NCBI GenBank assembly: GCA_024398365.1
Contig: JAKSJG010000003.1
Span: 20,960 to 84,959 of the forward strand
Reading direction: 5' to 3'
DNA: 64,000 bases
Source: Bacteroidales bacterium
GTDB lineage: Bacteria > Bacteroidota > Bacteroidia > Bacteroidales > UBA932
Part shown: in pieces, positions 21,372-63,810 of the stretch
Numbering within the stretch: position 1 is the stretch's first letter
Layout of the letters: each line of letters starts with the position of its first letter
Notes under the pieces: model-generated
Database searches by the model: none
Seen by the model: only the letters and a program-made list of their open reading frames with translations
Told to the model about the DNA's origin: nothing
Position numbers and translations under genes: made by a program

Positions 21372-21418
21372 TTTTTCTTTTTTTTGCACGATTGATATTT
21401 TTTTGCGACATTTACCGT

Positions 21419-21603: not shown

Positions 21604-21968
21604 GTTTATTATTCAAACCTGCGGGTGACAGGTTTAGATGATGAGGATACGGACATCAATCAATCAGACAATCGGCGCCTCAGTGCGCTGCAGGGCAATG
21701 GAGTCGAAGCCACTGCCTTTGCCGGTATTATCTCCTGTACCGGTTGCCTCCGCATGCCCCTATGCGGCCGGTGTCGCCACTTACGGTACACTTGCCGCTC
21801 TTCCAACGGCCATTCAAAAAATAGATTCAGATATGAAAAATGTTTATTCGGCTCCTGAGAGCCGGGTTGTCCTCCTGTTTGAGGATGCTGTCATTGCCGC
21901 CAGCGGAAACAGCGGCTGTTCCAACTGGGAGTATTTCTGATATTCACAAACCAACCAAATAATCAATT

Positions 21969-23935: not shown

Positions 23936-23948
23936 GTACCCGGAGCCG
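23936..23948 (+). repeat. 13-bp direct repeat gtacccggagccg (copy overlapping the tRNA-Leu 3' end)
   Basis: It is identical to 20820-20832. Twelve of its 13 nt lie inside the tRNA gene. Confidence 0.6.
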
Positions 23949-24020
23949 GGATCGAACCGGCACAGCCTTGCGGCCATTGGTGTTTGAGACCAACGCGTCT
24001 ACCGATTCCGCCATCCGGGC
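23937..24020 (-). tRNA. tRNA-Leu (anticodon CAA)
   Basis: The reverse complement is GCCCGGATGGCGGAATCGGTAGACGCGTTGGTCTCAAACACCAATGGCCGCAAGGCTGTGCCGGTTCGATCCCGGCTCCGGGTA. It has a 7-bp acceptor stem, anticodon stem TTGGT/ACCAA with loop CTCAAAC, a long class-II variable arm, T-loop TTCGATC and discriminator A. Confidence 0.9.
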
Positions 24021-48687: not shown

Positions 48688-49253
48688 TAACCGCCCGCCT
48701 CGAGGCGCATATCGGGATGATGAAGGAGTTTGAGAGCAATGAGGCTCTCAAGGCCAGCCTGCTTGCTGCGGCTGAGATGATAGAGTCCTGCTTCCGCGCG
48801 GGCGGCAAGGTCTATTTCTGCGGCAACGGCGGCAGCGCGGCGGATGCGCAGCATATTGCCGCCGAACTTTCCGGCAGATTCTATTTTGACCGTGAAAGCC
48901 TGCCTGCAGAGGCACTGCACTGCAATACCTCCTATCTGACGGCGGTGGCTAACGATTATTCCTTTGACATCATATACTCCCGTCTGATAGCCGGCCTGGG
49001 CCGTCCCGGTGACGTGCTTGTGGGACTTTCCACCTCCGGCAACTCCAAGAACATACTGATGGCCTTCGAGGAATGCCGTTCCAAGGGCATCAGAACCATA
49101 GCCTTCACAGGCGCAACGGGAGGCAGCATGAAGGAGCTGGCCGACGTGCTGGTCAACGTGCCTTCCAATGACACTCCGCGCATCCAGGAAGCTCACATCA
49201 CAGCCGGCCATATCGTCTGCGAGATGGTCGAGCAGGCAATATTCGGAAAGTAA
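48672..49253 (+). CDS. gmhA: D-sedoheptulose-7-phosphate isomerase (SIS domain)
   Basis: 193 aa with the GmhA signatures GGKVYFCGNGGSAADAQHIAAEL and LSTSGNSKNI. It overlaps hddA by 16 nt. Confidence 0.9.
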   Translation: MDSSVITARLEAHIGMMKEFESNEALKASLLAAAEMIESCFRAGGKVYFCGNGGSAADAQHIAAELSGRFYFDRESLPAEALHCNTSYLTAVANDYSFDIIYSRLIAGLGRPGDVLVGLSTSGNSKNILMAFEECRSKGIRTIAFTGATGGSMKELADVLVNVPSNDTPRIQEAHITAGHIVCEMVEQAIFGK

Positions 49254-50455
49254 TGGAGTGCGTCATCCTTGCCGGCGGCATGGGCACACGCCTTCGCAGC
49301 GTGGTCAGCGAACTGCCCAAATGCATGGCCCCGGTGGCCGGGAAGCCTTTTCTGCACTATATAGTCGAGACCCTCGGGGCCTTCGGCTTTGACCATATCA
49401 TCTTCTCTCTGGGCTACAAACACGAATGCATAGAGGAATGGATAGGGGAGCTTCAGGCTTCCGGCGCCTGCCGCGCTCTTCCGAAGCTGGATTACGTAGT
49501 TGAGACCGAGCCTCTGGGTACCGGCGGCGGAGTGCGCTATGCCTTCTCCAAGGCCCGCGAGGAGTCGGTATTCGTGCTCAACGGGGATACATTCTTCGAT
49601 GTGGATTTCATGGAGATGATGGAACTCCACAATGCCTCCCGCGCCATGGCGACGGTTGCACTCAAGCCCATGCGCGACTTCGAGCGTTACGGCACCGTAG
49701 GGCTGGGTGATGACGGCATACACGTCACTGAATTCCGCGAGAAGCAGCATTGCGAAGCGGGCCTGATCAATGGCGGCGTGTATCTGATACGCCGTTCGGC
49801 GCTTGACGCCCTGCCTCAGAAATTCTCCATGGAGAAGGACTTCTTCGAGAAGGTGGTGGGCGGCGGCCGGATTGCAGGATATGTGTCTGACGGCTATTTC
49901 ATCGACATTGGCATACCTGAGGATTATGCCAGGGCGCAGGAAGATTTCGCATCAGGCGTCTACAAGCGCTACGATACTCTCTTTCTCGACAGGGACGGAG
50001 TGATCAACGTGCAGATAGTCGGCGATTATGTGCGCAGGCCTGAGCAGCTGCGCTTCATTGACGGGGCGCTGGAGGCGCTCGCTCTGCTCGCGCCGCTTTT
50101 CGCCCGCATCGTGGTGGTGACCAACCAGAGGGGCGTCACCAAGGGCCTGATGAGCGAGGCTGACCTCGAGGATGTGCACAGCCACATGCTCTCAGCCGTT
50201 GAGGCCGCGGGAGGCCGCATAGACCGCATATATTGCTGTACCGGCATGGACTGCAGTGACCCGCGCCGCAAACCGAATATCGGAATGTTCGAGGAGGCTC
50301 GCGCCGACTGGCCGCAGATGGACCTGCCGCGCTGCTTCATGGTAGGCGATCAGCCTTCGGACATGGAGTTTGCCGAGCGTGCCGGTCTGGTCGGCATACC
50401 AGTCTCAAGCCGTTACACCCTGCTTGACTTCGCCCGCGAACTTATATCGCACTGA
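49253..50455 (+). CDS. Bifunctional heptose-1-phosphate nucleotidyltransferase (HddC-like) / D,D-heptose-1,7-bisphosphate phosphatase (GmhB-like HAD)
   Basis: The N-terminal NTP-transferase motif is ILAGGMGTRLRSVVSELPKCMAPVAGKPFL. The C-terminal HAD motifs are LFLDRDGVIN and VVVTNQRGV, plus MVGDQPSDMEFAERAG. It makes a TAATG overlap with gmhA. Confidence 0.8.
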   Translation: MECVILAGGMGTRLRSVVSELPKCMAPVAGKPFLHYIVETLGAFGFDHIIFSLGYKHECIEEWIGELQASGACRALPKLDYVVETEPLGTGGGVRYAFSKAREESVFVLNGDTFFDVDFMEMMELHNASRAMATVALKPMRDFERYGTVGLGDDGIHVTEFREKQHCEAGLINGGVYLIRRSALDALPQKFSMEKDFFEKVVGGGRIAGYVSDGYFIDIGIPEDYARAQEDFASGVYKRYDTLFLDRDGVINVQIVGDYVRRPEQLRFIDGALEALALLAPLFARIVVVTNQRGVTKGLMSEADLEDVHSHMLSAVEAAGGRIDRIYCCTGMDCSDPRRKPNIGMFEEARADWPQMDLPRCFMVGDQPSDMEFAERAGLVGIPVSSRYTLLDFARELISH

Positions 50456-51557
50456 TGATTGCCCGGGCGAGATTGTCCCAGGTAGCGCTGCGCTTGAGGG
50501 CGGCTATGGCCTCGTTCCAGCGTTCTGCCGGCCCGGCAAAATAGTCTGAGATGCCGTCTGCAATCGCTTCAGGCGAAGAATCCCTTGTCATAAGACCTAT
50601 TCCGGCCTCGCCTATGCTCTGCGGCAGTCCGCCCACCGGGGTGGCGATCAGCGGCAGGTCGAAATGCAGCGAGATGGCTGTGATGCCGCTCTGGGTGGCG
50701 CTGCGGTATGGCAGGACGCAGACATCCGCCGCCGAGAAGAAGGCAGGCACCTCCTCGTCGCCTATGTAGCGGTTGAAGACCTTGATGCGCGCGCGCCGGC
50801 TTTCCGGCAGGGCCGCGATCTGCTGCTCATATTTGTCGAAGCTGCCGTAGCTCTCGCCTGCAATGACAAGCTGATAGTCCTCGGGCAGTCTGCCGAATGC
50901 GTCTATGAGCAGGTCCAGTCCCTTGTAGTCCCTGATAAGTCCGAAATACAGCAGAGTCTTGAGATCCGCTTCGAGCCCGAGCTGAGCCTGAGCCTGCTGG
51001 CGGTCCATCTTCTCTCCGAAATGGTCGTAGAGAGGGTGCGGCTGGCTGATGTGCGGTACCTGCGGCGCCAGCGAGAGCATGTCCGCCAGCACGGACCCGC
51101 TCATCGCCACGCAGAGGTCATTCTGCTTCAGGAACCACTTTGAGAAGGGTTTGTCGAAGAATTTGGTCTCGTGAGGGATCACATTGTCGAGTATGGTCAC
51201 GACCTTGATGCCATTGCGGCGCAGGATGCGGGCGACGGTGCCCAGCGACGGTGCGAGGTAGCTCATCCAGTATTTCATCACCACCACGTCAGGTTGCCAG
51301 GCGGCAATCTTGCGGGCTGTGCTGAAGTAGGTCAGCGGATTGGCCGTGTTGAGCACGGCGGTGCTGTCGATCACCTTGGCCTTGTCCTGCTCAGTCACGT
51401 ATTGCGTCTTGCCCGGGAACAGGAAGGACGGATACTGGCAGGTGAAGGTGAACGCCTTCACTTCGTGTTCGCGGCCCATGGCCTCGTACAGATTGGCGTT
51501 GAACTGCGCTATGCCCCCGCGGAAGGGATAGAAAGTCGATAGAAAAGCTACTCTCAT
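50442..51557 (-). CDS. Glycosyltransferase, GT4-like (GT-B fold)
   Basis: 371 aa, beginning MRVAFLSTFYPFRGGIAQF. The C-terminal half carries an E-x7-E-like region (LPYRSATQSGITAISLHFDLPLIATPVGGLPQ). Confidence 0.8.
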   Translation of the reverse strand: MRVAFLSTFYPFRGGIAQFNANLYEAMGREHEVKAFTFTCQYPSFLFPGKTQYVTEQDKAKVIDSTAVLNTANPLTYFSTARKIAAWQPDVVVMKYWMSYLAPSLGTVARILRRNGIKVVTILDNVIPHETKFFDKPFSKWFLKQNDLCVAMSGSVLADMLSLAPQVPHISQPHPLYDHFGEKMDRQQAQAQLGLEADLKTLLYFGLIRDYKGLDLLIDAFGRLPEDYQLVIAGESYGSFDKYEQQIAALPESRRARIKVFNRYIGDEEVPAFFSAADVCVLPYRSATQSGITAISLHFDLPLIATPVGGLPQSIGEAGIGLMTRDSSPEAIADGISDYFAGPAERWNEAIAALKRSATWDNLARAIISAI

Positions 51558-51633
51558 TGCATTTTAGTTATGGATGGCAATTTAGCAAAGATTTTTGGGC
51601 CAGCCAAAAATGGCTTCCTTCGAGGGCGATGTG

Positions 51634-52827
51634 TCAAATCAACTCCTTTTCCTTGACGATGCGCACCAGTTCGGCTGAGTTGGAGGCATCGAAGAGGGCA
51701 AACAGTTTTCTCTTGTACCACTTGATGGTCTCCGGGCTCAGGCACAGGGCCTCGGCTATCTGCGGATTGGTGTAGCCCTTGGCGACGAGATCCAGAATCT
51801 CCTTCTCGCGAGGTTTAAGAATAATGTCACTTGGCTTAGGAGCATTGCTTAAAGTCTCCACGGTCTCATCCATCACTTCCGTCAGTTCTGCCTTTTCCTG
51901 TTTAGTCCTGCGCAATCCCTTTATTACGAAATAAGTGCTTGCAGCCAGAAGGATAAGAGTTGTAAACAGTATGATAATCAGCGTAAGGTGCTTTTTCTGT
52001 AACGCCAGCACCTGCCCAGTGTAATCAAGACTTTCCATCCTGAACTGCAGCTCCTCATCTTCGTGCTGCGCGAAGTATATGTTGGCATCATTCAGGTACC
52101 GCATGGCCTTCGCAGTCCTGCCCATATCCAGATACAGGCTGCCCAGCCCCTTGCAGGCAGTGGCGACGGCGAGTGAATCATCAGCCAGTCTGGCATATTT
52201 CAGGCTCTCATGGTAGTACTTTTCCGCCTCTTTCAAGGCATCTTCATTGCGCATAGTCTCACCCATATTGTAGTACAATGTGGCGCTGCTGTTGTGCCAT
52301 CCTTGTGCCTTGAAGATCTCTCCTGCCTTGATGTAATAGTCCATGGCAGTGTCTATGGAGTCCATCATACTGTAGAGATTGCCCAGGGTACCGTACATCG
52401 ATGAGAGGGAATTGTCCCTTTCTGTCGGCTCGGTTGCCGGAATTCTTTCCACGGCATCCATGGCGATTCTGTAGTAGAAGGCGGCGCTGTCAAATTGCTC
52501 CTTGTACCAGAAATGCTGACCTATGGTCTTGGCCGCAGCGCATTCCCATTCGGGCCAGGCCATGCGCTTTGCTATGCCCAGCATCATGCGCGCATAGTAT
52601 TCGCTCTTCACGGAATTTGTGTTCAGGCAGCCGTACATCAGTTCATCGAGGTCCTTGACCAGGTGCTTGAGTTCTTCCTCGCCGGCTTTCTCGATGTCCA
52701 TGGCGGTCCACCCTGCCATAACAGCCTCAAGAGAGTCCACATTGTGAAAACGGTGGTCAGTATAACTTGCTTTTACAGAAATATTTAGGCAAAGGATGCC
52801 CAAGAGTGCCAGTGATATCTTTCTCAT
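51634..52827 (-). CDS. Membrane-anchored LuxR-family regulator: exported TPR-like sensor region, one TM helix and a cytoplasmic LuxR HTH
   Basis: It has a signal peptide and about 260 aa of TPR-like repeats (YYNMGETMRNEDALKEAEKYYHESLKYA...). The TM helix is LTLIIILFTTLILLAASTYFVI, and the C-terminus is REKEILDLVAKGYTNPQIAEALCLSPETIKWYKRKLF. Confidence 0.8.
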   Translation of the reverse strand: MRKISLALLGILCLNISVKASYTDHRFHNVDSLEAVMAGWTAMDIEKAGEEELKHLVKDLDELMYGCLNTNSVKSEYYARMMLGIAKRMAWPEWECAAAKTIGQHFWYKEQFDSAAFYYRIAMDAVERIPATEPTERDNSLSSMYGTLGNLYSMMDSIDTAMDYYIKAGEIFKAQGWHNSSATLYYNMGETMRNEDALKEAEKYYHESLKYARLADDSLAVATACKGLGSLYLDMGRTAKAMRYLNDANIYFAQHEDEELQFRMESLDYTGQVLALQKKHLTLIIILFTTLILLAASTYFVIKGLRRTKQEKAELTEVMDETVETLSNAPKPSDIILKPREKEILDLVAKGYTNPQIAEALCLSPETIKWYKRKLFALFDASNSAELVRIVKEKELI

Positions 52828-52888
52828 ACGGCAAATTTAAGAAAATTGCCATTTTTTCATAATCGTGCAGGCTGTTCATGACCCATTT

Positions 52889-52915
52889 CCACCCGAACGG
52901 GTGGTGTTTTTCTTT
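52889..52915 (+). terminator. Terminator-like hairpin in the divergent intergenic region, 37 nt upstream of the small LuxR gene
   Basis: ccaccc-gaac-gggtgg (52889-52904) is followed by tgtttttcttt. There is no plus-strand CDS upstream of it. Confidence 0.4.
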
Positions 52916-52951
52916 GCCAAAATAAAGACATTTGCAATCTATATCAGGTAT

Positions 52952-53146
52952 ATGGAAGTTTTTAACGATAAAGAGTTGAGCATTGCCCGTTATGCCGCTA
53001 CCGGCATGACGGCGCAGGAGATTGCCGCTGCCATGTGCCTGAGTACAGAGACGGTCAGATGGTATCGCAAGAGAATGCTGCGCAAAGCGGAGGCAAGAAA
53101 TTTCGCGGAGCTGATCGCCAGGTTGAAGGATGAAAAAATAATTTAA
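52952..53146 (+). CDS. Stand-alone LuxR-type HTH protein (64 aa)
   Basis: The start is trimmed to the ATG at 52952: MEVFNDKELSIARYAATGMTAQEIAAAMCLSTETVRWYRKRMLRKAEARNFAELIARLKDEKII. It is paralogous to the C-terminus of the divergent 397-aa regulator (shared ET(I/V)(K/R)WY(K/R)KR motif). Confidence 0.7.
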   Translation: MEVFNDKELSIARYAATGMTAQEIAAAMCLSTETVRWYRKRMLRKAEARNFAELIARLKDEKII

Positions 53147-53161
53147 CATACACTTATCGAT

Positions 53162-54553
53162 ATGAATCAGAAAAGGATTTTATCAATGGCCGTCATCGCG
53201 CTTGTCGCATGCGGCAATGCGGATGCGCAGAATGTACTCGGCCGTCTGGCCGAGCGCGCCAAGAGTGCGGCAGAGAATGCCGTCAGCAACAAGATAGAGA
53301 ATGCCATCAGCGGTGCGATTGACAATGTGGGAAAGAAGAAGGGCAAGAAAGATAAGAACAACGACAACGCTGAAACGGCAACTGACAATACTTCAGCCAA
53401 GAGTTCAACTTGGGTATGCCCTGAGTGCGGCAAGGCCGGCAATACAGGGGATTTCTGCGGTGACTGCGGCGCGAAGAGGCCTGCCGGTGCGACAGCACAG
53501 GATCCGACGATAGCTACATCAACTGACTTCAAGCGTGGAAGCGTCATCCTCTTCCTGGACGATTTCGCGTCAGAGACTGTCGGCGAATTCCCATCGAAGT
53601 GGGAACTCAACAATGGCGGCAGTGTTGAAGTGAAGACTCTAGACGGAGTGAAAGCCGTGGAGATTACTAACGGAGGATACATCACTCCTCTCATCAAGCA
53701 GGAGGGCGCATATCTTACCGAGGAATTCACGGTGGAGTTCTCCTACTATTATTGGCCAAGCCAGGAGGACGCCGGATTGGATTACGTCGGAGCGAATGAC
53801 ATCAAGTTGTACTTGAACTCAGACACTGACCGTTCAAGAAGCGAAGAGTATGTAATAGCTGATGAAAAAAGAATTGCCTTCTCAATAGGTTTCCCTGTCT
53901 GCGATTCTCCTAATGTCAGTTATGCATACTACAACGGAAAAAAGCCTATAGACGGTAGCACCAAATATAAACTTACCAAAGGCTGGCACAACGTGCAGGT
54001 TTCGTTTAACAAGCGTGCGCTGAAAGTATATATTGACGGCAACCGCATCGTCAACCTGCCTCAGGTGGCACAGGCCACATGGATGGCCTTTCAAGTTCCT
54101 TACAATTATTCGAACCTGACCTTTATCAAGGATGTTGTCATAGCACAGGGTGCTGTGGAACTCTATGACCGCAATGCCCAGGACATTACAGCAGTCGAGA
54201 AATCGATGCAGGAGACCGGCAAGTTCGTGACCAACAACATCCTCTTCGATACCGGCAAGGCCACTCTCAAGCCTGAGTCAATGACCGACATCCGGATGGT
54301 GGCTGACTATATGAAGAAGAACCCTTCAGCCCGCTTTGAGGTACAGGGTCACTGCGACAACACCGGCTCCGCTGCAACCAATGACAAGCTCAGCCAGCAG
54401 CGTGCCGAGGCCATCGTGGCCGAGCTTGTGAAACTCGGTGTTGATGAATGGAACCTCCGCGCAGTGGGCAAGGGCTCCCACGAGCCTGTGGCTGACAACA
54501 GCACGGAGGCCGGCCGCGCAAAGAACCGCAGAGTGGAATTCATCAAGAAATAA
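53162..54553 (+). CDS. Exported OmpA_C-domain protein with a zinc-ribbon-like CxxC..CxxC insert and a jelly-roll-like middle domain
   Basis: The signal peptide ends ...GNADA-Q. It continues with an amphipathic helix, a Lys-rich linker, WVCPECGKAGNTGDFCGDCGAKRP and a beta-rich domain (FLDDFASETVGEFPSKWELNNGG...). The C-terminal OmpA-like domain reads NNILFDTGKATLKPES...VQGHCDNTGSAATNDKLSQQRAEAIVAELVKLGV...GKGSHEPVADNSTEAGRAKNRRVEF. Confidence 0.85.
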   Translation: MNQKRILSMAVIALVACGNADAQNVLGRLAERAKSAAENAVSNKIENAISGAIDNVGKKKGKKDKNNDNAETATDNTSAKSSTWVCPECGKAGNTGDFCGDCGAKRPAGATAQDPTIATSTDFKRGSVILFLDDFASETVGEFPSKWELNNGGSVEVKTLDGVKAVEITNGGYITPLIKQEGAYLTEEFTVEFSYYYWPSQEDAGLDYVGANDIKLYLNSDTDRSRSEEYVIADEKRIAFSIGFPVCDSPNVSYAYYNGKKPIDGSTKYKLTKGWHNVQVSFNKRALKVYIDGNRIVNLPQVAQATWMAFQVPYNYSNLTFIKDVVIAQGAVELYDRNAQDITAVEKSMQETGKFVTNNILFDTGKATLKPESMTDIRMVADYMKKNPSARFEVQGHCDNTGSAATNDKLSQQRAEAIVAELVKLGVDEWNLRAVGKGSHEPVADNSTEAGRAKNRRVEFIKK

Positions 54554-54562
54554 TTCAGAATA

Positions 54563-56464
54563 ATGAAAAAGATATTTGCAATTCTGGCAGCTGCCATGCT
54601 GCTTGGTGCTCCTGCCGCAAATGCGCAGGCGCTCTTGAACAAGCTCAAGGAGAAAGCCGGCGAAGCCGTGGGCAACGCCATCAACAGCAAACTTTCAGAG
54701 AAGGTGCAGAACGCCGCATCCAAGGTCGGCGAGAAGATAGGCGACAAGGTCGGCGAGATAACAGGTGTGGATGTCAATTCCGCAGCCAAGACTGCAAAGG
54801 ACGGCATCACTGTCGTAAGCGGTGACGAGATGATACAGCCTCGTCACGCCAGCTCATTCTGCTGGACAGAGGCCGTGACCCCGAGCACCGCCAAATTCCC
54901 TGCTCCGCTGCTCAAGGAACTCCCTGCAGTGCCTTCCGCAAGCGAACTTGCCAATCCGACAGAGGCTGCTCAGGCCGCTTATTACCGCGCCATCAAGGCT
55001 GTCACCCTCCGCGCCGAGGAACTCAACAGCAGCACCACCTGCGAAGATGACATGACAGAGCTCTGGAGAGCGGATTACGAGAATGCCCTCACCAAGAGCT
55101 TCGGTCTCACCAAGGCTGAACTCGAGGCCCTCGAATCAGGCAAGCTTACTCCTGAAGAGGAAGAAGCTCTCCGTGCCCGCATTGCCAAGAATCTTCTCGG
55201 CGGCACTTCTGTCGCCGACCTCGAAGCTGAGGCCAAGAGAGTCGAGGCAATGGGTGATGACGGTTTGATGGAGGTCACCTACAAGGCCACCAGCGCAGTA
55301 TATGACAAGCACAATGCCGAAATCAAGAAATATATGGGCGTCACAGCCGATGAACTCAAGGCTCAGATGCGCCTCAATATGCAGGACACCAAGAACACCG
55401 GAAAGAGCGAGAAGGAATTCGAGGCCAAGGTGAAGGCTTACCAGAAGAAGCAGGCCGCCCTGGACAAGAATTTCCAGAAGGAAGCGGATGCCTTCGGCAA
55501 TGCAATGCAGAAGGAGGTTCTCGCTGCCGTAAGGGCTGCCACTCCGGGTGTGGGCACCGCACTTGACATGATGGGCAATATAGGCAAGATGAAAGATGCT
55601 CTCTCACCTCTTATGGAGCGTCAGAAGAAGCTTGAGAAATATGCAAAGGACGTAATGGCCGCATGGCCTGAAACGGCAAGCAAGGCAAAGGAAATAGGTC
55701 TTGTTGATCGCAAGAAACTTGAGGACATCAAGGCGAAGATTCTGGCATCCGATGACCCGGCAGTCTATAATCCTCTTTATGTCCAGGCCGGTGAGATCAT
55801 TAAGAACCACCGTATGAAGACCGCCCAGGCGTGGGCCGCAGACGTGCAGAAGCGTTTCAACAAGATACAGGAAGCCATGCCGAACCTCGTCCAGATCCAG
55901 CGTCAGGCAGTTGAGGACAAGCTCATCCCTGAATGCGCCCTCTGGCGTACACCTCTCAATCTCGTGATCGAGGCTGGTGATATCCTTCAGGACGCATACG
56001 CAGACTTCCCTATCAGCTATCCTAAGATGTACGGCGAGGAAGTGGTACGCAAGGTGAAGCTCGCAGCGGGTGAAGAGCCTTGGTGGCCTGAATTCTACAT
56101 CGCATCCGACAATCTAGGTGAGGTCCTTGCCGGCAAGCTTATCTTCAAGGCTGACGACAAGTGCAATTACTATCAGTTCAACGCTGGCAAGTGGATACCT
56201 GTATCCAAGGATTTCGGTCTGACCAAGAAGGCCGGCAAGTCTGACGTGAAGAGTCAGAGCTGGACTTCCACCGACGGCAAGCGTACAGTGAAGCTTGACG
56301 CGCAGTACGGTCAGCAGATATTCCTTCCTGAAGGCGACATCATCACCGATTTCGCCGCTGTTGAGAAGCAGGGCAACAATATCGTATGGGCCCGCATCGA
56401 TACAGAGGAGGAGTCTGACGGTACTTTATACTATGTCATCACAAAGTGTACTTACAAGCTCTAA
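54563..56464 (+). CDS. Exported hypothetical protein (633 aa): long helical Lys/Glu/Ala-rich region plus a beta-rich C-terminal domain
   Basis: The signal peptide ends ...PAANA-Q. The N-terminal helix is similar to that of the preceding protein. No family is recognised. Confidence 0.7.
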   Translation: MKKIFAILAAAMLLGAPAANAQALLNKLKEKAGEAVGNAINSKLSEKVQNAASKVGEKIGDKVGEITGVDVNSAAKTAKDGITVVSGDEMIQPRHASSFCWTEAVTPSTAKFPAPLLKELPAVPSASELANPTEAAQAAYYRAIKAVTLRAEELNSSTTCEDDMTELWRADYENALTKSFGLTKAELEALESGKLTPEEEEALRARIAKNLLGGTSVADLEAEAKRVEAMGDDGLMEVTYKATSAVYDKHNAEIKKYMGVTADELKAQMRLNMQDTKNTGKSEKEFEAKVKAYQKKQAALDKNFQKEADAFGNAMQKEVLAAVRAATPGVGTALDMMGNIGKMKDALSPLMERQKKLEKYAKDVMAAWPETASKAKEIGLVDRKKLEDIKAKILASDDPAVYNPLYVQAGEIIKNHRMKTAQAWAADVQKRFNKIQEAMPNLVQIQRQAVEDKLIPECALWRTPLNLVIEAGDILQDAYADFPISYPKMYGEEVVRKVKLAAGEEPWWPEFYIASDNLGEVLAGKLIFKADDKCNYYQFNAGKWIPVSKDFGLTKKAGKSDVKSQSWTSTDGKRTVKLDAQYGQQIFLPEGDIITDFAAVEKQGNNIVWARIDTEEESDGTLYYVITKCTYKL

Positions 56465-57165
56465 TATCACTTGTAGCATTGCTATTTGCAGCACCCTCGC
56501 CTGACGGGAGTGCTGCAAATGCTTATTGTGACGCCCACCGCGCTCAGTGGCAGGAGGTCTGGCAGCAGTTCGACGTGCCCTGCGACATCGCCGAGGCTGT
56601 CGTGTTCCCGGAGCTGATACGCTATTCCACCCTGAAGGATGCTGTGGAGACAGCCTCCGTCAGCACTCTGTATCTCAACAAGGGTGCGGAGGCCTGCGAC
56701 TTCTCGATAGGCGTATTCCAGATGAAGCCCTCCTTCGTCGAGGAGCTGGAGAAACGCTGGATGCGAAGCGGCATGGCGCGTCAGTACAATCTATTCTTTG
56801 ACACGAAGGACAGCCGCATGGCCCGCAAGGTGCGCATCAACCGTATGGGTGAGGAACAGTGGCAGTGCGTGTATCTTGCCATTTTCCTGAAGATGCTCTA
56901 TCTGGACTACGGTTCCGTGAACAAGGACGGCGTGCATACTCAGGACGGGCTGGACAGACTTCCGCGCAAGGAGCAGGTACGGCTCGCCGCCACTGCCTAC
57001 AACCGCGGCTGCCGCTGGGTCAATCCCGGCTACGGACCGCTGGAAGAGCTCCGCGACAAATCCCGCGAGAAGCATTTTCACACTGCATTCGTGCCTGTGC
57101 GCGGCACACGCCGCTACGTCTATGCGGACATTGCTTTGAAACATTTCAAGGAAATAAACAGATAA
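56446..57165 (+). CDS. Exported hypothetical protein with SLT (lytic transglycosylase)-like motif spacing
   Basis: It has a GTG start overlapping the previous gene by 19 nt and an N-terminal hydrophobic segment. The motifs VVFPELIRYS, FSIGVFQMKPSF and TAYNRGC recall the E-S / GLMQ / AYNxG motifs of SLT domains. The assignment is tentative. Confidence 0.5.
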   Translation: MYLQALISLVALLFAAPSPDGSAANAYCDAHRAQWQEVWQQFDVPCDIAEAVVFPELIRYSTLKDAVETASVSTLYLNKGAEACDFSIGVFQMKPSFVEELEKRWMRSGMARQYNLFFDTKDSRMARKVRINRMGEEQWQCVYLAIFLKMLYLDYGSVNKDGVHTQDGLDRLPRKEQVRLAATAYNRGCRWVNPGYGPLEELRDKSREKHFHTAFVPVRGTRRYVYADIALKHFKEINR

Positions 57166-57196
57166 TCATAATCTTAACCCACAATCTTTACACACT

Positions 57197-57898
57197 ATGA
57201 AAAGACATCTTTTAATCCTCGCGGGCATTGCAACCGCACTCATGATGGTATCCTGCAAGGGAGGTAACAAGTCTGCTGCTGAAGGTGCAGAGGAAGCTGT
57301 TGAAGAAGCAACTGAATTCAATGGCGAAATGTTCTCCAAAGAGGCAGTGCAGTTCTATGTAAAGAACTTCAAGCTGAAATTCAAGGACATCGAGGCGGAT
57401 TACGCCTATGATGACTCCAACAAGTACAATTTTGCAGGCGAAGCCCGTCAGATAGCAGCCGGTTTCCCTGTAAAGGAAGGAGAAAGCTTCACTGACGAGC
57501 AGTACAACGCATTCGTCACCAAGATATATAACGCAACCAAGGCTGTTGCTGACAACGGTATCTGTGTCAATGGTTTCGAAAAGAAGGACAACAAGGATGA
57601 AGCTATGGCGGAATACACACTCGAAGAGGCTCTTGCCGGCACTACAGTCTTTGGTATCCGTATTGACGACGCAAGCTGGGCTTTCCTGCTTGACGGCAAG
57701 TTCAATGTCGCTTCAGTCAGCAAACTCTCAGCAGGCAACGGCTGTATGGTGAAGATCTACGAAGGCCTGCAGAAGAGCTTCAATGAGACTATGGAGGACG
57801 CAGAAAAGGTTCTCGAAGAGATTGACAAAGACCCGGCCAAGAAGGCTGCTGTCGAGAAGGAAGTCGACAAGGCCCTGAAGGAAGCAGGTCTCAAATAA
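57197..57898 (+). CDS. Lipoprotein, unknown function
   Basis: The start is MKRHLLILAGIATALMMVSCKGG (lipobox). 233 aa. No family is recognised. Confidence 0.7.
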   Translation: MKRHLLILAGIATALMMVSCKGGNKSAAEGAEEAVEEATEFNGEMFSKEAVQFYVKNFKLKFKDIEADYAYDDSNKYNFAGEARQIAAGFPVKEGESFTDEQYNAFVTKIYNATKAVADNGICVNGFEKKDNKDEAMAEYTLEEALAGTTVFGIRIDDASWAFLLDGKFNVASVSKLSAGNGCMVKIYEGLQKSFNETMEDAEKVLEEIDKDPAKKAAVEKEVDKALKEAGLK

Positions 57899-58929
57899 TG
57901 AAAAAACGTTTCCTATTATTGGCGGCAGCCCTGCTGGCGGTATGCTCTCCTGCGGCGAGAGCCCAGTACCCTATCGAGAAGGAGCTGCTCGCAGAGACCG
58001 ACAGGCTGTACGCCGAAGGCAATGCATGGTATGAGGCCGGCTACAAGCTGCAGGCCGACTGGTATTATGCCCAGGCCGTGGTGGCGGTGCAGTCATTCAA
58101 GTTCGCGGTGTCCAACATAGCGATCAAGGTCGTCCGGGCGCAGGAGGATTCGGTGGAGGCTGCCAACAGGGCGGCCCTCAAGGCGGAGATTGCCAAGGCT
58201 CCCGACACGGTGGATGACAGCATGAACGACATATTCGGATTCAATATCAACAGTGTCCTTTCCACTCTCAATTCCATTGCAAAGGCGGCGGACAAGATGG
58301 CCGACGACATCGACAAGGCCGCCGATGCGATTACGGCAAAGGGGGAGAAGCTGGGCATATCGATGGACGATGACAAGGAATCCCGCGCAGAGATGTGGAA
58401 TATTCTCGCTAACCAGAGCATAGTGTCACCATATCCGTATTTCTTCGAAGGACTGGTGGAGAATGCCTATGGATACAGGGATGATGCGGTCAAGGCATTG
58501 AGCTGCGCTTTCTCCAATCCATATCTGCTGCATACGGACCTCGATTTCAGATTCCTCAACGGCATCTCACTTGAGGATCTGCGAGCCCTCTATGCGCGTC
58601 TGGATGCCAGATACAGCGAGTATATGCAGGGCCTTTCGCTCAGCACAAGCACCTGTATCAGGGACTGGCGCAACTTCAACGACGACTGGCTGATATACGC
58701 CGGCACGAAGCTGCTCACTGAAAGCAAGAACGGCATAGTGGAAGCGGTGCCTTATTTTGACGCCGCAGTCAGCGCCAACCCGTTCAATGTCGAGAATTTC
58801 GTTGTGGCGGCAGCGGCACACATCGCCTCCGGCGACTATTCACGCGCCGCTGAAATGGTCAATGAAGGTCTGCTGCTCGATCCGTCCAACAGCGACCTCA
58901 AACAAATGGTATCCGATCTGAAGAAATGA
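57898..58929 (+). CDS. Exported helical/TPR-like protein, unknown function
   Basis: It has a signal peptide (LLAVCSPAARAQ) and helical repeats. The C-terminus is TPR-like (AVPYFDAAVSANPFNVENFVVAAAAHIASGDYSRAAEMVNEGLLLDPSN). It makes a TAATG overlap with the previous gene. Confidence 0.7.
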   Translation: MKKRFLLLAAALLAVCSPAARAQYPIEKELLAETDRLYAEGNAWYEAGYKLQADWYYAQAVVAVQSFKFAVSNIAIKVVRAQEDSVEAANRAALKAEIAKAPDTVDDSMNDIFGFNINSVLSTLNSIAKAADKMADDIDKAADAITAKGEKLGISMDDDKESRAEMWNILANQSIVSPYPYFFEGLVENAYGYRDDAVKALSCAFSNPYLLHTDLDFRFLNGISLEDLRALYARLDARYSEYMQGLSLSTSTCIRDWRNFNDDWLIYAGTKLLTESKNGIVEAVPYFDAAVSANPFNVENFVVAAAAHIASGDYSRAAEMVNEGLLLDPSNSDLKQMVSDLKK

Positions 58930-60491
58930 AAAAGCTGACAATATTATGCGCCATCCTGCTGATGGCCTGCCTTCCCGCCAGCGCGCAGTTCCCGCAGGTG
59001 GAAGGCGATCCGATAGACTATTCACGCATCAGGTACCCGCATTATCCGGGTTCGTTCCCCGCTACCTTCATGATGGAGATCGTGATGTTCAGAGAGTCCG
59101 TGTTCGAGGATTATCCGGAGATGCTCAAGGGCAACAATACCGAGGTGATCATGTTCAACGGCGAGCTGATCAAGACCAAGGAAATCAATTACAAGATGCT
59201 TCAGAATGCCATCAACTGGGGTTTCAACGAATCTGGCATACGCGACCGCAGGCATCTCCAGCAGCTGATCGACCAGGTCAACGCAGTCATCAGGGATGAT
59301 GCCCGCGACCAGTTCTGGGAAAATATGCAGAACAATGCATCCAATACTTTAAGCAACGTCGCCGGCGACATCACAGGAACATCTCACGCAGGCAACGGCT
59401 TGATGGCCGCCAAATATGCCCACAAAATAGTTGACTTGGCTACCGGCCGCAATAATTTCTCCCAGGCTTTCCTCAATAGCGGAACCGCTTCCGATGCGGC
59501 TTCCATAGGTCTGCAGCTTGCCGGAGCGGCCGCTGAGACGGCGGAGGCCACTAACGGTCTGTTCTTCCTGTTCGATTTCTGGAAGACCTTCTTCGACGAA
59601 TACTATGAAGCCACCTCCGTGAAGCCGGCGCGTACTGCTGCCATGCTTGCAGCCAAGATGATAAACAAGTTCTACGACAGTGTGAACAAAAATCTCAGGG
59701 ACATTGCACAGAGTATTGACGGTGAGAAGTGGATGATTTATTTCAAGGGAAAGCAGTCCTGCCCTTTCGTTTATTATGATGAGAAATGCTCGATGTCCCT
59801 GTCCATGGTATGTTCGCTTGACAAGCTCTGGCCTGTCGATGATGACCGTCCTGATGCCGAACAAAGGTTTCACGACAGCTTCGAGGGCAGTTATTTCGGA
59901 TACATCGAGGCCGACCAGACCTGCGACATGCAGAACTTCGACAAAAATTACATAATAACGGACAAGGGTATGGTGACTGAGAACTCCAATATAAGCGACT
60001 TAGGGGCAATCAGCGCGGACAGTCCTCTTCACATGCGTCAGAACGCGAATATGTGGTATCAATTGGCAGTGAGGCACAATGCTGAAGGCGAAAGGGTGAC
60101 CTTCAAGCACGAGACCAAGGCCGGCACCGCTTTCTCGGCACATTACAGCATGCCGGTACTGCTGACCCTCAAGTCACCTTCCTCATATCAGAACAAGGCC
60201 TATACCACTTACTCCACTCTCGACGGCGAGGAGGAGATAGGTGGAGATTATCCGAAGATGGAGGTCACATACATGCGCCAGACATACGACCACATATTCA
60301 CCGTCAGTGACAAGACGATGAATATCAAGGAGGAGGAGACTATGAAGGATGGCAAGATGGTCATCTACTCCGGCGGCAAGGTGATAAAGGAGGATGAAGC
60401 CGAGGCCTGTCTTATCGGCCCTCCTCGTGGAACAATGTGCGTCAACCTTCAGCAATCCATCGCTGACGGTACGTTCAGCAAAACAAAATAG
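58926..60491 (+). CDS. Exported hypothetical protein (521 aa)
   Basis: The signal peptide is MKKLTILCAILLMACLPASAQ. It makes an ATGA overlap with the previous gene. No family is recognised. Confidence 0.7.
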   Translation: MKKLTILCAILLMACLPASAQFPQVEGDPIDYSRIRYPHYPGSFPATFMMEIVMFRESVFEDYPEMLKGNNTEVIMFNGELIKTKEINYKMLQNAINWGFNESGIRDRRHLQQLIDQVNAVIRDDARDQFWENMQNNASNTLSNVAGDITGTSHAGNGLMAAKYAHKIVDLATGRNNFSQAFLNSGTASDAASIGLQLAGAAAETAEATNGLFFLFDFWKTFFDEYYEATSVKPARTAAMLAAKMINKFYDSVNKNLRDIAQSIDGEKWMIYFKGKQSCPFVYYDEKCSMSLSMVCSLDKLWPVDDDRPDAEQRFHDSFEGSYFGYIEADQTCDMQNFDKNYIITDKGMVTENSNISDLGAISADSPLHMRQNANMWYQLAVRHNAEGERVTFKHETKAGTAFSAHYSMPVLLTLKSPSSYQNKAYTTYSTLDGEEEIGGDYPKMEVTYMRQTYDHIFTVSDKTMNIKEEETMKDGKMVIYSGGKVIKEDEAEACLIGPPRGTMCVNLQQSIADGTFSKTK

Positions 60492-60497
60492 AGAATT

Positions 60498-60944
60498 ATG
60501 ATACTCAAAAGATACGTTTCACTGGCACTTGTGTGCTTCGCTTATCTCTGCGGGACTGCCTGCAGTGCGGGCAAGACTCCAGCGCTCAACCCAATGGAGT
60601 CCATTGTCTGCCAGATGGGAAAGAACTGGTGCATAGTGCGTGACGATCAGACACGCCGCAACCCGTTCAGCCTGCGTGACCGCAAGACACTCGAACCGGC
60701 ATTTGACGCGAAGTTCGAGAAATATCTGGATACTTTTGAATTTGGCGGCAAGCCATTCATCGCCGCGGCAAACTGGAACCCGGCATTCGAATACCTCTGG
60801 AACGCCTGGATTTATGACGGGCATCAGTGGCTTCAGCTGATGCAGAAGCCTTGCGTCGAACTCAAGCTGATAGAGGAGGACGGCAAACCTGTCCGTCTGG
60901 AGGGTACGGACATTGACGGACAGCCGGTCAGCTGGATGCCTTAG
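60498..60944 (+). CDS. Small exported protein or lipoprotein (148 aa), unknown function
   Basis: The N-terminus MILKRYVSLALVCFAYLCGTACSAGK is a possible lipobox. It is the last gene of the plus-strand operon and is convergent with aroC. Confidence 0.6.
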   Translation: MILKRYVSLALVCFAYLCGTACSAGKTPALNPMESIVCQMGKNWCIVRDDQTRRNPFSLRDRKTLEPAFDAKFEKYLDTFEFGGKPFIAAANWNPAFEYLWNAWIYDGHQWLQLMQKPCVELKLIEEDGKPVRLEGTDIDGQPVSWMP

Positions 60945-61882
60945 AGTTCCGCCAGCACGCAGGCGGTGAGGGCCTCGACGACAGGCGGGACGCGCAGGGC
61001 GAAGCAGCAGTCGTGGCGGCCGGGGATTGAGAAGTCCGCCATTGCGCCTGCGGCGAAATCGTAGCTGCGCTGCGCTCTGGCTATGCTGGAGGTCGGCTTG
61101 ACCGCGATGCGGAACACTATAGGGTTGCCGTTGGTCAGGCCGCCGTTGATGCCTCCGCAGCCGTTCTTTGCGGTACGGCCGGTGGCGTCGATGATTGGGT
61201 CGTTGTGCTCTGAACCCTTCATTGCTGCTGCGGCGAAACCGTCGCCGAATTCTATGCCGCGCACGCCTGGTATGGAGAACATCGCATGCGATATGAGTGA
61301 TTCGACGGAGTCGAAGAACGGCTCTCCCAGACCCACCGGAATGCCGGTGCAGCGGCACTCGATGATGCCTCCCACCGAATCGCCTTCCTGAGCGGCCTGT
61401 TCGATGTCGCCGTGGCTGATGAGCTCAGCCTTGATCTCTATCGGCGCAATCATCTTCCTGGCAATGACTCCCGCGGCTACCAGCGGCAGGGTCATCCTGC
61501 CTGAGAAGAATCCGTCCAGCAGGGAGCCGTAGCGCGAGTATGCCACAAAGTCGGCGTGGCCGGGACGCGGCCTGTCGCGGAAGCTCTCATAGTCCTGCGG
61601 GCGTATGTTTTTGTTGGCAAAAGAGATGCGTATCTGTCCGCCGTCAGTGACCATGCTGCCGTCGTCACGGAGTGAGACGCCACCCTCGAACTGCGGTATG
61701 TCGTCCTCTATGCGCGGAGTCGTGCCGGGCGCTCCGCTCTTGCGGCGCAGGATATCGCGCATGAAGTCATCCGCCTCGAGGGTGATGCCCTGCGGCACGC
61801 CGTCTATTGCCACAGCTACGTTTTCAGCGTGCGACCCGCCGCTGAGTGTGATGCGGAATCTGTTTCCGAATGAATTGTTCAT
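60941..61882 (-). CDS. aroC: Chorismate synthase (short, divergent form)
   Basis: 313 aa. The N-terminus FGNRFRITLSGGSHAENVAVAIDGVPQG has GGSHAE where GESHG is usual. RPGHADF and PGRHDCCFALRVPPVVEALTACVLAEL match AroC motifs. The context (aroB, aroD-aroA) supports the call. Confidence 0.8.
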   Translation of the reverse strand: MNNSFGNRFRITLSGGSHAENVAVAIDGVPQGITLEADDFMRDILRRKSGAPGTTPRIEDDIPQFEGGVSLRDDGSMVTDGGQIRISFANKNIRPQDYESFRDRPRPGHADFVAYSRYGSLLDGFFSGRMTLPLVAAGVIARKMIAPIEIKAELISHGDIEQAAQEGDSVGGIIECRCTGIPVGLGEPFFDSVESLISHAMFSIPGVRGIEFGDGFAAAAMKGSEHNDPIIDATGRTAKNGCGGINGGLTNGNPIVFRIAVKPTSSIARAQRSYDFAAGAMADFSIPGRHDCCFALRVPPVVEALTACVLAEL

Positions 61883-63810
61883 CTCTTTTTCTTCAATTTG
61901 TCCAGAGTGTCCATGAAGCCCGGGAATGATTTGGCTATGCAGCCGATATCGTCTATCTCGACAGGATTCTCGCTTATGAGTGAGGCTATCTCGAGCGCCA
62001 TCGCGAGACGGTGGTCACCGTGGGAGGAGCATTTGCCGCCGCGAAGCATCAGATGCTCATTGCCTTCTATGTAGAGCGCTCCATCGACCACGAACATGTC
62101 GGCGCCGAGGGCGCGGAATTCCTTGACGAAGGTCCTGGCGCGGTTGCTTTCCTTGTTCTTGAGGCGGTCCAGTCCGTAGATGCAGCATTCGCCGCAGGCG
62201 CGGAGGCCGAGCAGCACCAGAGGCGCGAAGAGATCAGGTGCGTCGATCAGGTCAAAGGTGAACGGGCAGATGATGGACTTGCGCACGTTCACGTCACCCT
62301 TGTCGTTGTCAACAATGTCCACGTTGCACTGGTCTAGGAAGTCGTATATGGTCTCGTCCGCCTGGTCCGTGCCGAATTTGAGCCCGCGTATGGTGACGCT
62401 GCCCATCATGGCGCCGGCCACCAGGAAGAATGCGGCGGAGCTCCAGTCCTTCTCGAGCTTCATTCCGCCCACCGGCCTGATCTGCTGCATGCCGTCTATG
62501 ATGATGTCACATTCGTCATTCTCCGTAATGAAATCAGGAGTCACGGTATCCTTCAGCCCGAAATATGCGCCGACGGTGGATGTCATGCCTATATATGGGA
62601 CGCTGGTGGGATGGTCGACGTGCAGATGGCTCACTCTGTCGCACTGTGACAGGGCCAGGGTCAGTCCTGATATCATCTGTGAACCGTGTATGCCGTTGAG
62701 CCTGATGTTGCCGCCCTTGAGCTTTCCGCACACCTTGACCGGCAGGTAATCCCTGTCAGTGTATTCGATGTTGAGGCCGAGGCGCTTGAGAGCGCCCCTG
62801 TGCTCGCTGACCTTGCGCTCCAGCAGGGTCTTCTCGCCGGTGATGGTCACCGGTTCGCGGGAAAGGCCTGCAAGCGGGATGCAGAGACGCGCCATAAGGC
62901 CGGATTCGCCCACGAAAAGCGTGTTGTCCTTGACCCGGAGGCCATCCTTGCGTATGTTCTGGTGGCCGACTATGGTCACCGTGCCGTCCTCCACCGTCAC
63001 TTCCGCGTACAGGCTTTCGGCCACGCTGAGGGCCGCGCGGCTGTCGTCGCAGAATGAGAAATTGTAGAGCTTCGTCTGACCTTCGGTCAATGCGGCGAGC
63101 AGTATTGCCCGCTGAGCCATGCTCTTGGAGCAAGGTATCTCGGCTACGCCCTTGAGTATCTTGTTGCAGGGTTTGATGAAATCGTAGTAGCAGAACTGTC
63201 CCGGAGCGGTCTCATAGCCGCGGCGGGGCGACAGGTAGAAGAGTGGAGCGCCCTGATAATAGGATTCGAGCCGGGACTCGATGCCTTCCTTGCCCATGGC
63301 GAAGGCTATCAGGGTCTGTGGCTTGTATATCTTGTAGAGGGAGCATATTGTATCGTTGTCCTCATCGCAATGCGCCGTGGTGACTATCTTGACTATGTCC
63401 GCGCCTTCGCAGAATGCTGCGTCGGCCACGCTGCGGAGCTGTTCGGCCGCCGGCGTGTTGCTGTAATTGTGATAGGAGATGATGATGCGGCAGCCCTTGT
63501 TGAGCGCCAGGCTGATGAGCCACTGACGCGAGGCCTTGTCCAGGTCCAGGGAGATGTCCACGAAGTCCGCTCCCGCGAGAATGGCCGCCGAGAGCTGCCT
63601 GAGGGCGGTCTGCCTGTCATAGTCCTTGCCTATGTGCGCTGTCGCCACCAGATCCGAATCCCTGGTGGTGGAGAATATGTCCTTTATCTGCTCCTCGTCG
63701 AAATGGCACAGGTCCAGGCGTACTTCCACGGCGCTGCCGGGTCTGCGCTGCGCCATGAATTTGCAGTAGAAGCTTTCCACCTTACCCACGCTGTAGCATA
63801 TCAGTCCCAT
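61879..63810 (-). CDS. aroA: Fusion protein: type I 3-dehydroquinate dehydratase (AroD) N-terminal and EPSP synthase (AroA) C-terminal
   Basis: The N-terminal ~215 aa are AroD-like (VEVRLDL..., ISYHNYSNTP, ADIVKIVTTA). The remainder is AroA-like (IPCSKSMAQRAILLAALTEGQTKL, ...GDHRLAMALEIASL...). Confidence 0.85.
   Translation of the reverse strand: MGLICYSVGKVESFYCKFMAQRRPGSAVEVRLDLCHFDEEQIKDIFSTTRDSDLVATAHIGKDYDRQTALRQLSAAILAGADFVDISLDLDKASRQWLISLALNKGCRIIISYHNYSNTPAAEQLRSVADAAFCEGADIVKIVTTAHCDEDNDTICSLYKIYKPQTLIAFAMGKEGIESRLESYYQGAPLFYLSPRRGYETAPGQFCYYDFIKPCNKILKGVAEIPCSKSMAQRAILLAALTEGQTKLYNFSFCDDSRAALSVAESLYAEVTVEDGTVTIVGHQNIRKDGLRVKDNTLFVGESGLMARLCIPLAGLSREPVTITGEKTLLERKVSEHRGALKRLGLNIEYTDRDYLPVKVCGKLKGGNIRLNGIHGSQMISGLTLALSQCDRVSHLHVDHPTSVPYIGMTSTVGAYFGLKDTVTPDFITENDECDIIIDGMQQIRPVGGMKLEKDWSSAAFFLVAGAMMGSVTIRGLKFGTDQADETIYDFLDQCNVDIVDNDKGDVNVRKSIICPFTFDLIDAPDLFAPLVLLGLRACGECCIYGLDRLKNKESNRARTFVKEFRALGADMFVVDGALYIEGNEHLMLRGGKCSSHGDHRLAMALEIASLISENPVEIDDIGCIAKSFPGFMDTLDKLKKKR

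Follow-up and report, generated by a model that had tools for sequence, protein, structure and literature searches.

BguR and SusR are membrane-spanning one-component regulators that carry a GerE-family helix-turn-helix (HTH) domain (bioRxiv 10.64898/2026.01.10.698779). We describe here a locus from a Bacteroidales bacterium in which a regulator of similar layout, R, lies beside a second, small LuxR-type protein and seven genes for exported proteins, g1 to g7 (contig JAKSJG010000003.1 of assembly GCA_024398365.1, positions 20,960 to 84,959; this stretch of 64,000 nucleotides (nt) is the window, and coordinates refer to it unless another contig is named). Like SusR and BguR, R combines a signal peptide, a periplasmic sensor, a single transmembrane helix and a C-terminal GerE HTH in the same order, has no phosphorelay, and is encoded beside its presumed targets. 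Unlike them, R senses through a short TPR array in place of tandem beta-propellers and a Y_Y_Y domain, measures 397 amino acids (aa) as against 940 aa, has targets that are not a polysaccharide utilisation locus (PUL), and is paired with a paralogous HTH protein that lacks a sensor.

Other parts of the locus also have described relatives. LuxR-type activators bind a palindromic box beside the -35 region (lux box, GerE); both regulators of the present locus share with them the GerE-family HTH, stand-alone in the small LuxR, and promoter elements closely follow a 16-bp palindrome at a fixed spacing. They differ from these activators in having no autoinducer-binding or receiver domain and an unusual W-Y pair in the recognition helix, and R is in addition tethered to the membrane. 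Among the OmpA_C anchors (Pal, YiaD, PorE, TagL/TssL, MotB), g1 is familiar at its C-terminus, a canonical OmpA_C domain with the diaminopimelate-binding Asp and Arg, but its N-terminal part, with an amphipathic motif, an optional zinc ribbon and a LamG-like domain, matches none of them. Flagellar, type VI secretion system (T6SS) and type IV secretion system assemblies pair a peptidoglycan anchor with a dedicated enzyme that cleaves glycan strands, a part here predicted for g3, whose best named fold matches, at weak scores, are family 1 lytic transglycosylases of GH23 (MltE, MltC, Slt70) and goose-type lysozyme; in contrast to OmpA_C anchor systems, the present locus has no membrane-embedded or energy-coupling partners.

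The best explanation of the locus, in our view, is a composite: a conserved core of g1, g2 and g3, with R, followed by a lineage-specific 3' extension, g4 to g7. The core would be a signal-induced, peptidoglycan-tethered periplasmic module for wall remodelling or turnover, and we give the two readings, taken jointly, an even chance. The features are as follows.

51623-60950, no strand: block shared with the closest GTDB genome (locus L001, 5179-14503) at 90.7% nt identity, flanks unmatched on both sides
51634-52827, minus strand: R, 397 aa, from the map of open reading frames (ORFs)
52832-52839, minus strand: candidate -7 box of R, TAAATTTG, 4 nt ahead of the start codon of R
52889-52904, no strand: palindrome CCACCCGAACGGGTGG, candidate operator for R, the small LuxR or both
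52927-52934, plus strand: candidate -7 box of the small-LuxR/g1-g7 operon, GACATTTG, placed by consensus
52952-53146, plus strand: small LuxR, 64 aa, ATG start, first gene of the operon
53162-54553, plus strand: g1, 463 aa
54563-56464, plus strand: g2, 633 aa
56446-57165, plus strand: g3, 239 aa
57197-57898, plus strand: g4, 233 aa, lipobox MVSC
57898-58929, plus strand: g5, 343 aa, exported
58926-60491, plus strand: g6, 521 aa, exported
60498-60944, plus strand: g7, 148 aa, small exported protein or possible lipoprotein

We scanned GTDB with each species represented by a single genome and obtained no fewer than 482 related loci. Nearly all come from records titled Bacteroidales, namely Prevotella, Parabacteroides goldsteinii, Xylanibacter ruminicola and Cryptobacteroides-like metagenome-assembled genomes (MAGs) recovered from the guts of horses, chickens and ruminants. 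We compared the neighbourhoods of the best 80 of these loci by tblastn and all-against-all clustering of 1013 ORFs; positional counts cover only loci with sufficient sequence. The recurring families were g2 (71 loci), g3 (67), g1 (55) and R-type regulators (28, often with a stand-alone LuxR protein alongside), and any other family was confined to at most 8 loci. Gene order recurs as well: in 62 of 69 loci g2 immediately precedes g3, in 39 of 53 g1 lies upstream, and in 22 of 45 an R-family gene adjoins g1. Among the best 80 loci, g4 to g7 were found in L001 alone, with relatives of g5 and g6 also in L049; a few metagenome contigs outside this set further carry g4-g7 genes. Elsewhere the sequence downstream of g3 is variable, often holding housekeeping genes or genes on the opposite strand, and one or two unrelated exported ORFs follow g3 in 16 of 54 loci. 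The original prediction had taken the seven genes for one self-contained machine, to be refuted if they did not co-occur outside this genome. They are not inherited together as one system: co-occurrence elsewhere holds for g1 to g3 and the regulators and largely fails for g4 to g7, which are absent from nearly all 80 loci.

Some genomes hold two g1-g2-g3 copies (contig pairs L014/L021 and L048/L057, each pair from one MAG). A second OmpA-like gene follows g3 in L042, and a 1901-aa exported protein and a g3-like fragment follow it in L057. Two short g2-g3 contigs, L027 and L030, are titled Oscillospiraceae MAGs, which probably reflects binning contamination and not presence in Firmicutes.

The extension changes quickly and recombines. 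At least 23 metagenome contigs encode the exact g4 protein, and in every case the genes run g3-g4-g5-g6. In loci L088 and L089, identity to the window is 54% for g2, 72% for g3, 35% for g5 and 26% for g6, while g4 is 100% identical as protein and 97.9% in nt (tract 56980-57899, which spans the 3' end of g3 and g4 and stops exactly at the g4 stop codon). Because g4 is identical within an otherwise divergent operon, it appears to have been exchanged recently by recombination; g5 and g6, which have fallen to 35% and 26% where g3 keeps 72%, evolve far faster than the core. After g3, L049 (10705-16214) has two tandem pairs of g5-like and g6-like genes, the g5-like copies 62% identical, and then two exported ORFs of about 340 aa; L013 keeps a 132-aa remnant of the g5 tail at this position. 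The existence of g6 as an independent gene elsewhere was considered and rejected: the sole apparent case, L081 (3054-5672), is a decayed copy of the block, with a truncated R homologue (49% identical to R aa 53-312, with neither signal peptide nor HTH) and the last codons of g5 ahead of an intact g6 relative. Both g5 and g6 are thus always tied to the block yet sporadic within its phylogeny.

The products of the extension are mostly without relatives of known type. The g4 protein is a lipoprotein, as proposed, by its lipobox. Of the helical, TPR-like character proposed for g5, two canonical TPRs at aa 277-342 stand (TPR_19 at 25.0 bits, equal to the Pfam cut-off, and a match to consensus TPR designs), and the remainder matches nothing. 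The g6 family is rare, with 23 proteins among 1.84 billion representatives in an exhaustive HMMER search and three word-level matches; no Pfam domain was found in its members and no recurrent family among the 24 relatives searched, and sequence and profile searches of the PDB gave no meaningful match. Outside the species of the window and its closest relatives we did not see g7.

One could still read all seven products and their regulators as one self-contained machine for adhesion, secretion or vesiculation, as first proposed. The genes are tightly packed and co-directional; the junctions of +9, -19, +31, -1, -4 and +6 nt given for the seven plus-strand genes are matched exactly by the ORF map, the small LuxR gene 15 nt upstream of g1 brings the co-directional set to eight, and a consensus scan found no convincing terminator between them. 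All products are exported, judged by eye and hydropathy: g1, g2, g5 and g6, like R, have clear type I signals ending in A-x-A followed by Q, and g4 has its lipobox. The claim of a signal peptide or lipobox in every product needs qualifying for g3, whose N-terminus is hydrophobic but has no basic n-region (signal peptides of the usual kind are present in distant orthologues), and for g7, whose lipobox, GTAC, is non-canonical. The same reading gains from the recurring g3-g4-g5-g6 order in L088/L089, the g5/g6 pairs after g3 in L049, and the status of the isolated g6 in L081 as a remnant of the same block. It loses by the near-complete absence of g4 to g7 from the 80 core loci and by the fast divergence of g5 and g6. 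Hydropathy, moreover, finds no internal membrane helix in g1 to g7, the sole hydrophobic segment being the N-terminal signal, and Pfam and NCBIfam find no ATPase, channel or beta-barrel family; components of trans-envelope machines (type IX secretion system (T9SS), fimbriae, T6SS) were matched by none of the seven in Pfam, NCBIfam or PADLOC. Since nothing in g1 to g7 spans the membrane or supplies energy, a secretion or adhesion machine is unlikely, and so is a self-contained machine in the secretion sense; the wider seven-product version we consider highly improbable.

We searched all nine proteins against Pfam, NCBIfam, PHROG and PADLOC, and g2, g3, g4, g6 and g7 matched no family in any of them. 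The unassigned proteins do lie outside established systems, in agreement with the original prediction: T9SS, fimbrial, PUL and defence profiles were all without match, and solved structures gave no significant match for g2 or g6, nor for g3 beyond a weak lysozyme-like similarity.

That similarity carries the enzymatic part of our proposal. The 707 homologue clusters of g3 are all unnamed, and 22 homologues showed no recurrent Pfam family. Its AlphaFold2 model (pLDDT 88.8) is mostly alpha-helical; the best named matches in the PDB are MltC, MltE and g-type lysozyme, all weak (E about 1-5, template-modelling (TM) score 0.4-0.54), with MltF also among the fold neighbours. In BFVD the best match has E=8e-3 at probability 1.0, followed by phage lysins and LT_GEWL proteins, and sequence and profile searches of the PDB gave nothing meaningful. 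A single profile-profile test, planned beforehand, compared g3 by hhalign with the SLT domains of E. coli MltE, Slt70, MltC, MltD and MltF, and returned P=0.003 over 108 columns at an hhalign probability of about 10%. The alignment places E56 on the catalytic Glu, G89-x-F-Q92 on GLMQ and A184-Y-N-x-G188 on AYNxG, and, under relaxed hhalign settings, Y226 (TRRYVY) on the C-terminal Y motif, so that g3 has the motifs of GH23 in collinear order: a Glu ending the first motif, G-x-[MF]-Q, A-Y-N-x-G and a C-terminal Tyr. Within g3 these correspond to AEAVVFPE (E56), SIGxFQMKPSF, AATAYNRG and TRRYxY, and the SLT-type positions are invariant in a 22-sequence alignment. The UniRef name of the Xylanibacter orthologue is "Transglycosylase SLT domain-containing protein"; the Pfam SLT model nonetheless does not match it. 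The SLT-like motif spacing proposed for this product is thus borne out weakly but consistently, by fold neighbours, hhalign and collinear motifs. We think it likely that g3 is a very divergent protein of lysozyme (GH23-like) fold and, with less assurance, that it has probably retained catalysis.

The anchor assigned to g1 is secure, with OmpA_C (PF00691) scoring 81.6 bits against a gathering cut-off of 27.2. The protein consists of a signal peptide, an amphipathic motif (QNVLGRLAERAK), a Lys-rich linker, an optional zinc ribbon (about aa 97-118), a LamG-like beta-sandwich (about aa 120-340) and OmpA_C (aa 361-456), in which the motifs NDxLSxxRA (TNDKLSQQRAEAIV in the window) and NRRVEF are kept across 44 orthologues. 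Against the NCBIfam equivalogs (T9SS PorE, Pal, YiaD, TssL, MotB) only the OmpA_C part matches, far under the cut-offs (69.7 against 600 for PorE). The LamG-like assignment is weak (Laminin_G_3 E=0.03 in Pfam, 5HON E=0.018 in the PDB), with the signature W-x-H-x-A-x-SF...K-x-Y-x-NG. The zinc ribbon is present in Cryptobacteroides-type g1 proteins and absent from the Xylanibacter, Parabacteroides and Prevotellaceae-MAG orthologues examined; in L029 (6591-8060) it is doubled. A Cys4 ribbon is unusual in an exported protein.

The g2 family, of 530-650 aa, is unannotated. The window protein has a signal peptide, an amphipathic motif (QALLNKLKEKA), a Lys/Glu-rich region to about aa 88, a helical bundle (about aa 113-480) and a beta domain of about 140 aa (aa 490-633); its model has pLDDT 76, with residues 1-88 below pLDDT 50. 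Near-invariant across 66 orthologues are Cys160, Cys458, Cys629, several Arg, Glu and Asn residues, and the C-terminal CTYKL. Foldseek against the PDB gave no match with probability >0.63 or TM >0.2, and START/Bet v 1-like matches were rejected as noise; the g2 profile matched only ApoLp-III in the PDB (E=0.02), probably for compositional reasons. Directly after the signal peptide, 58 of 71 g2 proteins and 39 of 57 g1 proteins carry the motif Q-x-[FL]-L-x-[KR]-[LA]-x-x-[KR]-A, which is missing from all remaining ORFs of the 81 loci and of the window. Nothing else hints as strongly at joint action of g1 and g2 as this shared amphipathic motif.

The regulators are as originally described. In R, a signal peptide is followed by a periplasmic TPR sensor (about aa 140-260; TPR_12 E=4.7e-13 in Pfam), one transmembrane helix (aa 284-302, nt 51922-51978) and a cytoplasmic GerE/LuxR HTH (aa 337-390, nt 51658-51819), and Pfam and NCBIfam find no phosphorelay domain (HisKA, HATPase or receiver) in it. 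GerE (PF00196, gathering cut-off 23.5 bits) scores 46.6 bits in R (E=2.6e-12) and 44.5 bits in the small LuxR (E=1.2e-11). The two are paralogous: they are 35-37% identical across 62 aa, and their HTH-coding stretches form an inverted repeat of 46 nt, 76% matched. Because their recognition helices are almost alike (STETVRWYRKRM in the small LuxR, SPETIKWYKRKL in R), they should read the same DNA.

The layout of R, with its signal peptide, periplasmic sensor and GerE HTH, also invites a reading in which R senses a periplasmic oligosaccharide, g1 binds it and g3 degrades it for nutrition or recycling, in the manner of a PUL; candidate ligands would be environmental muropeptides or chito-oligosaccharides. 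SusR and BguR regulate glycan utilisation, DUF6377-type regulators lie in or beside carbohydrate-utilisation clusters, g1 has its LamG-like domain, and GH23 includes enzymes acting on polymers of N-acetylglucosamine. R is not SusR proper, though, at 19.1 bits against the equivalog cut-off of 480 (NF058541), and it reaches 18.5 bits against the 36.7 required for DUF6377; the families that recur in the 80 loci, g1 to g3 and R, include no transporter and no enzyme of sugar catabolism, and an OmpA_C anchor is atypical of PUL enzymes. We regard glycan sensing and processing as quite unlikely.

A candidate operator ties the regulators to the operon. Aligning the intergenic regions between R and g1 brought out a palindrome with the consensus CCACCC-N4-GGGTGG, present in a single perfect copy in the window. 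If up to one mismatch is tolerated, 21 of 40 loci have it in the 450 nt ahead of g1, including Prevotella and Prevotellaceae MAGs at about 40% g3 identity. Its density is 1.33 per kb upstream of g1 and 0.003 per kb elsewhere, an approximately 440-fold enrichment, and it tracks R, occurring in 17 of 18 loci with R and 4 of 16 without (Fisher p=4.5e-5, kinship among loci ignored). In most Cryptobacteroides-type loci it stands exactly 26 nt from a (G/T)AnnTTTG box, and the alignment of this box holds in most palindrome-bearing loci; on the R side a box is kept as CAAAnnTA in the intergenic regions of related loci. The Bacteroides -7 promoter consensus is TAnnTTTG, and the boxes matched to it are candidate promoters, as we infer from their fit. 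An RNA hairpin, terminator or attenuator was considered for the palindrome and rejected: across 19 sequences its arms show 7 breaks left uncompensated and not one compensatory pair, tandem double copies occur in several loci, and the promoter phasing is fixed; Rfam has no family inside the block (51623-60950). Being conserved in sequence without compensation, linked to R and phased with the promoter, the palindrome is likely a protein-binding operator beside a promoter, and the view that the regulators are dedicated to this locus gains by it.

The operator also bears on the gene calls. The longest ORF of the small LuxR gene (52865-53146, GTG start) would give 93 aa; we rejected this form, which would include the operator and promoter boxes and is not conserved. 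The 64-aa ATG form was taken as the true one because the orthologue in L001 matches it (64 aa, 92% identical) and the promoter elements fall inside the longer ORF. Against L001, the closest relative, the ratio of nonsynonymous to synonymous substitution rates (dN/dS) is 0.06-0.26 for all nine genes (0.065 for the small LuxR, 0.137 for g7), with no frame disruption. On this comparison all nine are coding genes under purifying selection, g7 included; the antisense ORF that overlaps g7 is spurious.

The setting of the block differs between the two genomes that share it. In the window it lies between genes for GDP-heptose synthesis with a GT4 glycosyltransferase and aroC with an aroD-aroA fusion; in L001 it lies between engB, xseA, xseB and ribF-like genes (named from ORF translations) and unrelated genes. 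Its G+C content is 0.50-0.54 against about 0.575 in the flanks, and identity to L001 is a mosaic of 78-100%. The unrelated flanks, lower G+C content and mosaic identity suggest that the block was relocated or exchanged as a unit by recombination. A mobile element was rejected despite the differing contexts, since its borders show neither terminal repeats nor an integrase or tRNA.

These same observations could describe a conflict locus, an island exchanged horizontally in which g4 to g7 are diversifying immunity-like or decoy proteins and g3 a restrained wall degrader. The sharp borders amid unrelated flanks, the mosaic and low G+C content, a g4 that is 100% identical across operons whose g2 and g5 are at 54% and 35%, and the tandem g5/g6 duplication in L049 would all fit. 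However, no PADLOC, toxin or immunity family was matched, a secretion apparatus, recombinase and terminal repeats are missing, g3 is Sec-exported to the producer's own periplasm, and the core is vertically widespread. A conflict locus is, we think, the most improbable of the readings weighed here.

Around the block, the heptose genes (47656-51557) form a GDP-D-glycero-alpha-D-manno-heptose cluster (HddA-like kinase, GmhA, HddC-GmhB fusion) with the GT4 glycosyltransferase, directly upstream, and they are preceded directly by a 682-aa exported protein without NCBIfam match (45598-47646, plus strand). The fusion on the other side (61879-63810, minus strand) joins AroD, a type I dehydroquinase, to AroA, EPSP synthase, in 643 aa; the neighbouring aroC has its stop codon a few nt inside the 3' end of g7. 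Farther off are a cobalamin riboswitch (21407-21614, plus strand, 107 bits) upstream of the ORF at 21969-23630, and a tRNA-Leu (CAA) gene (23936-24020, minus strand).

Put together, the core would work as follows. An envelope signal would be sensed by the TPR domain of R and the operon switched on, R and the small LuxR acting at the palindrome, about 45 nt upstream of the presumed transcription start of the operon. Through its OmpA_C domain g1 would tether the products to peptidoglycan, its LamG-like domain may bind glycan, and g1 and g2 could associate with each other or with the membrane surface through their shared N-terminal motif. Local cleavage of glycan strands by g3 would then give a regulated, localised remodelling or turnover of the cell wall in the periplasm. 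Riding the same promoter, g4 to g7 would probably modulate or exploit the core, outside its conserved mechanism. What the sequences show directly are the gene structure, the pattern of conservation, the domains, and the palindrome with its association with R; the ligand, complex formation, enzymatic activity and physiological role of the module are inferred.

Several points weigh against this account. Both R and the palindrome are missing from about half of the core loci, those of X. ruminicola and P. goldsteinii among them, and regulation therefore varies among lineages; the association of palindrome and R disregards kinship. The most conserved partner, g2, gave no functional clue, and the literature holds no description of these gene families that we could find. 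The assignment of g3 is statistically weak, its Foldseek E-values all being 0.008 or higher and its hhalign probability low, and Pfam SLT (PF01464) is found neither in the window protein and 21 homologues (E<=10) nor in the Prevotellaceae and Parabacteroides orthologues. In contrast to GH23 enzymes, to which its identity is about 10-19%, g3 has P-E-L where the canonical E-S motif would place a Ser, and long insertions, one of about 18 aa separating motifs I and II, the other larger and ahead of motif III. It could be a non-catalytic binder.

If so, g1 to g3 might form a non-enzymatic scaffold, linking peptidoglycan to the membrane or stabilising the envelope under stress, with g3 as a dead lysozyme-fold binder. 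The OmpA_C anchor of g1, the apolipoprotein-like amphipathic N-terminal regions of g1 and g2, the Ser missing after the catalytic Glu and the insertions in g3 would suit such a scaffold, and the periplasmic TPR sensor of R would fit the sensing of envelope stress. Yet all four SLT-type motif positions, the Glu included, are invariant among g3 proteins at 35-98% identity, which argues for retained catalysis; we judge a purely structural scaffold unlikely and keep to wall remodelling or turnover as our reading of the core.

The domain types involved, OmpA_C, LamG-like, GH23-like and the GerE one-component regulator, are already known. New to the literature searched would be the g2, g4, g6 and g7 families, the three-gene unit, the candidate operator and a regulator of SusR/BguR type outside a PUL. 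It is possible, although we hold this more tentatively than the composite reading, that R, the operator and g1-g2-g3 represent an undescribed, Bacteroidales-wide envelope system with a new fold family in g2, a tethered, cryptic GH23-like enzyme in g3 and a 3' slot for exchanged, fast-evolving partners.

Bacteroidales dominate gut and rumen communities, and how they maintain their envelope and remodel their wall is poorly known. The comparison defines a module of three genes that recurs in no fewer than 482 loci of the species-representative genomes searched, and two of its families, g2 and g3, are without annotation; g3 would reveal a cryptic lysozyme-like family missed by standard domain models, and R would extend the use of SusR/BguR-type regulators beyond polysaccharide utilisation. 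The variable g4-g7 tail illustrates how operons gain lineage-specific exported partners. The palindrome is a concrete, testable candidate operator sequence, and the presence of the module in the cultivable Parabacteroides goldsteinii and Xylanibacter ruminicola makes its function in the Bacteroidales envelope directly testable.

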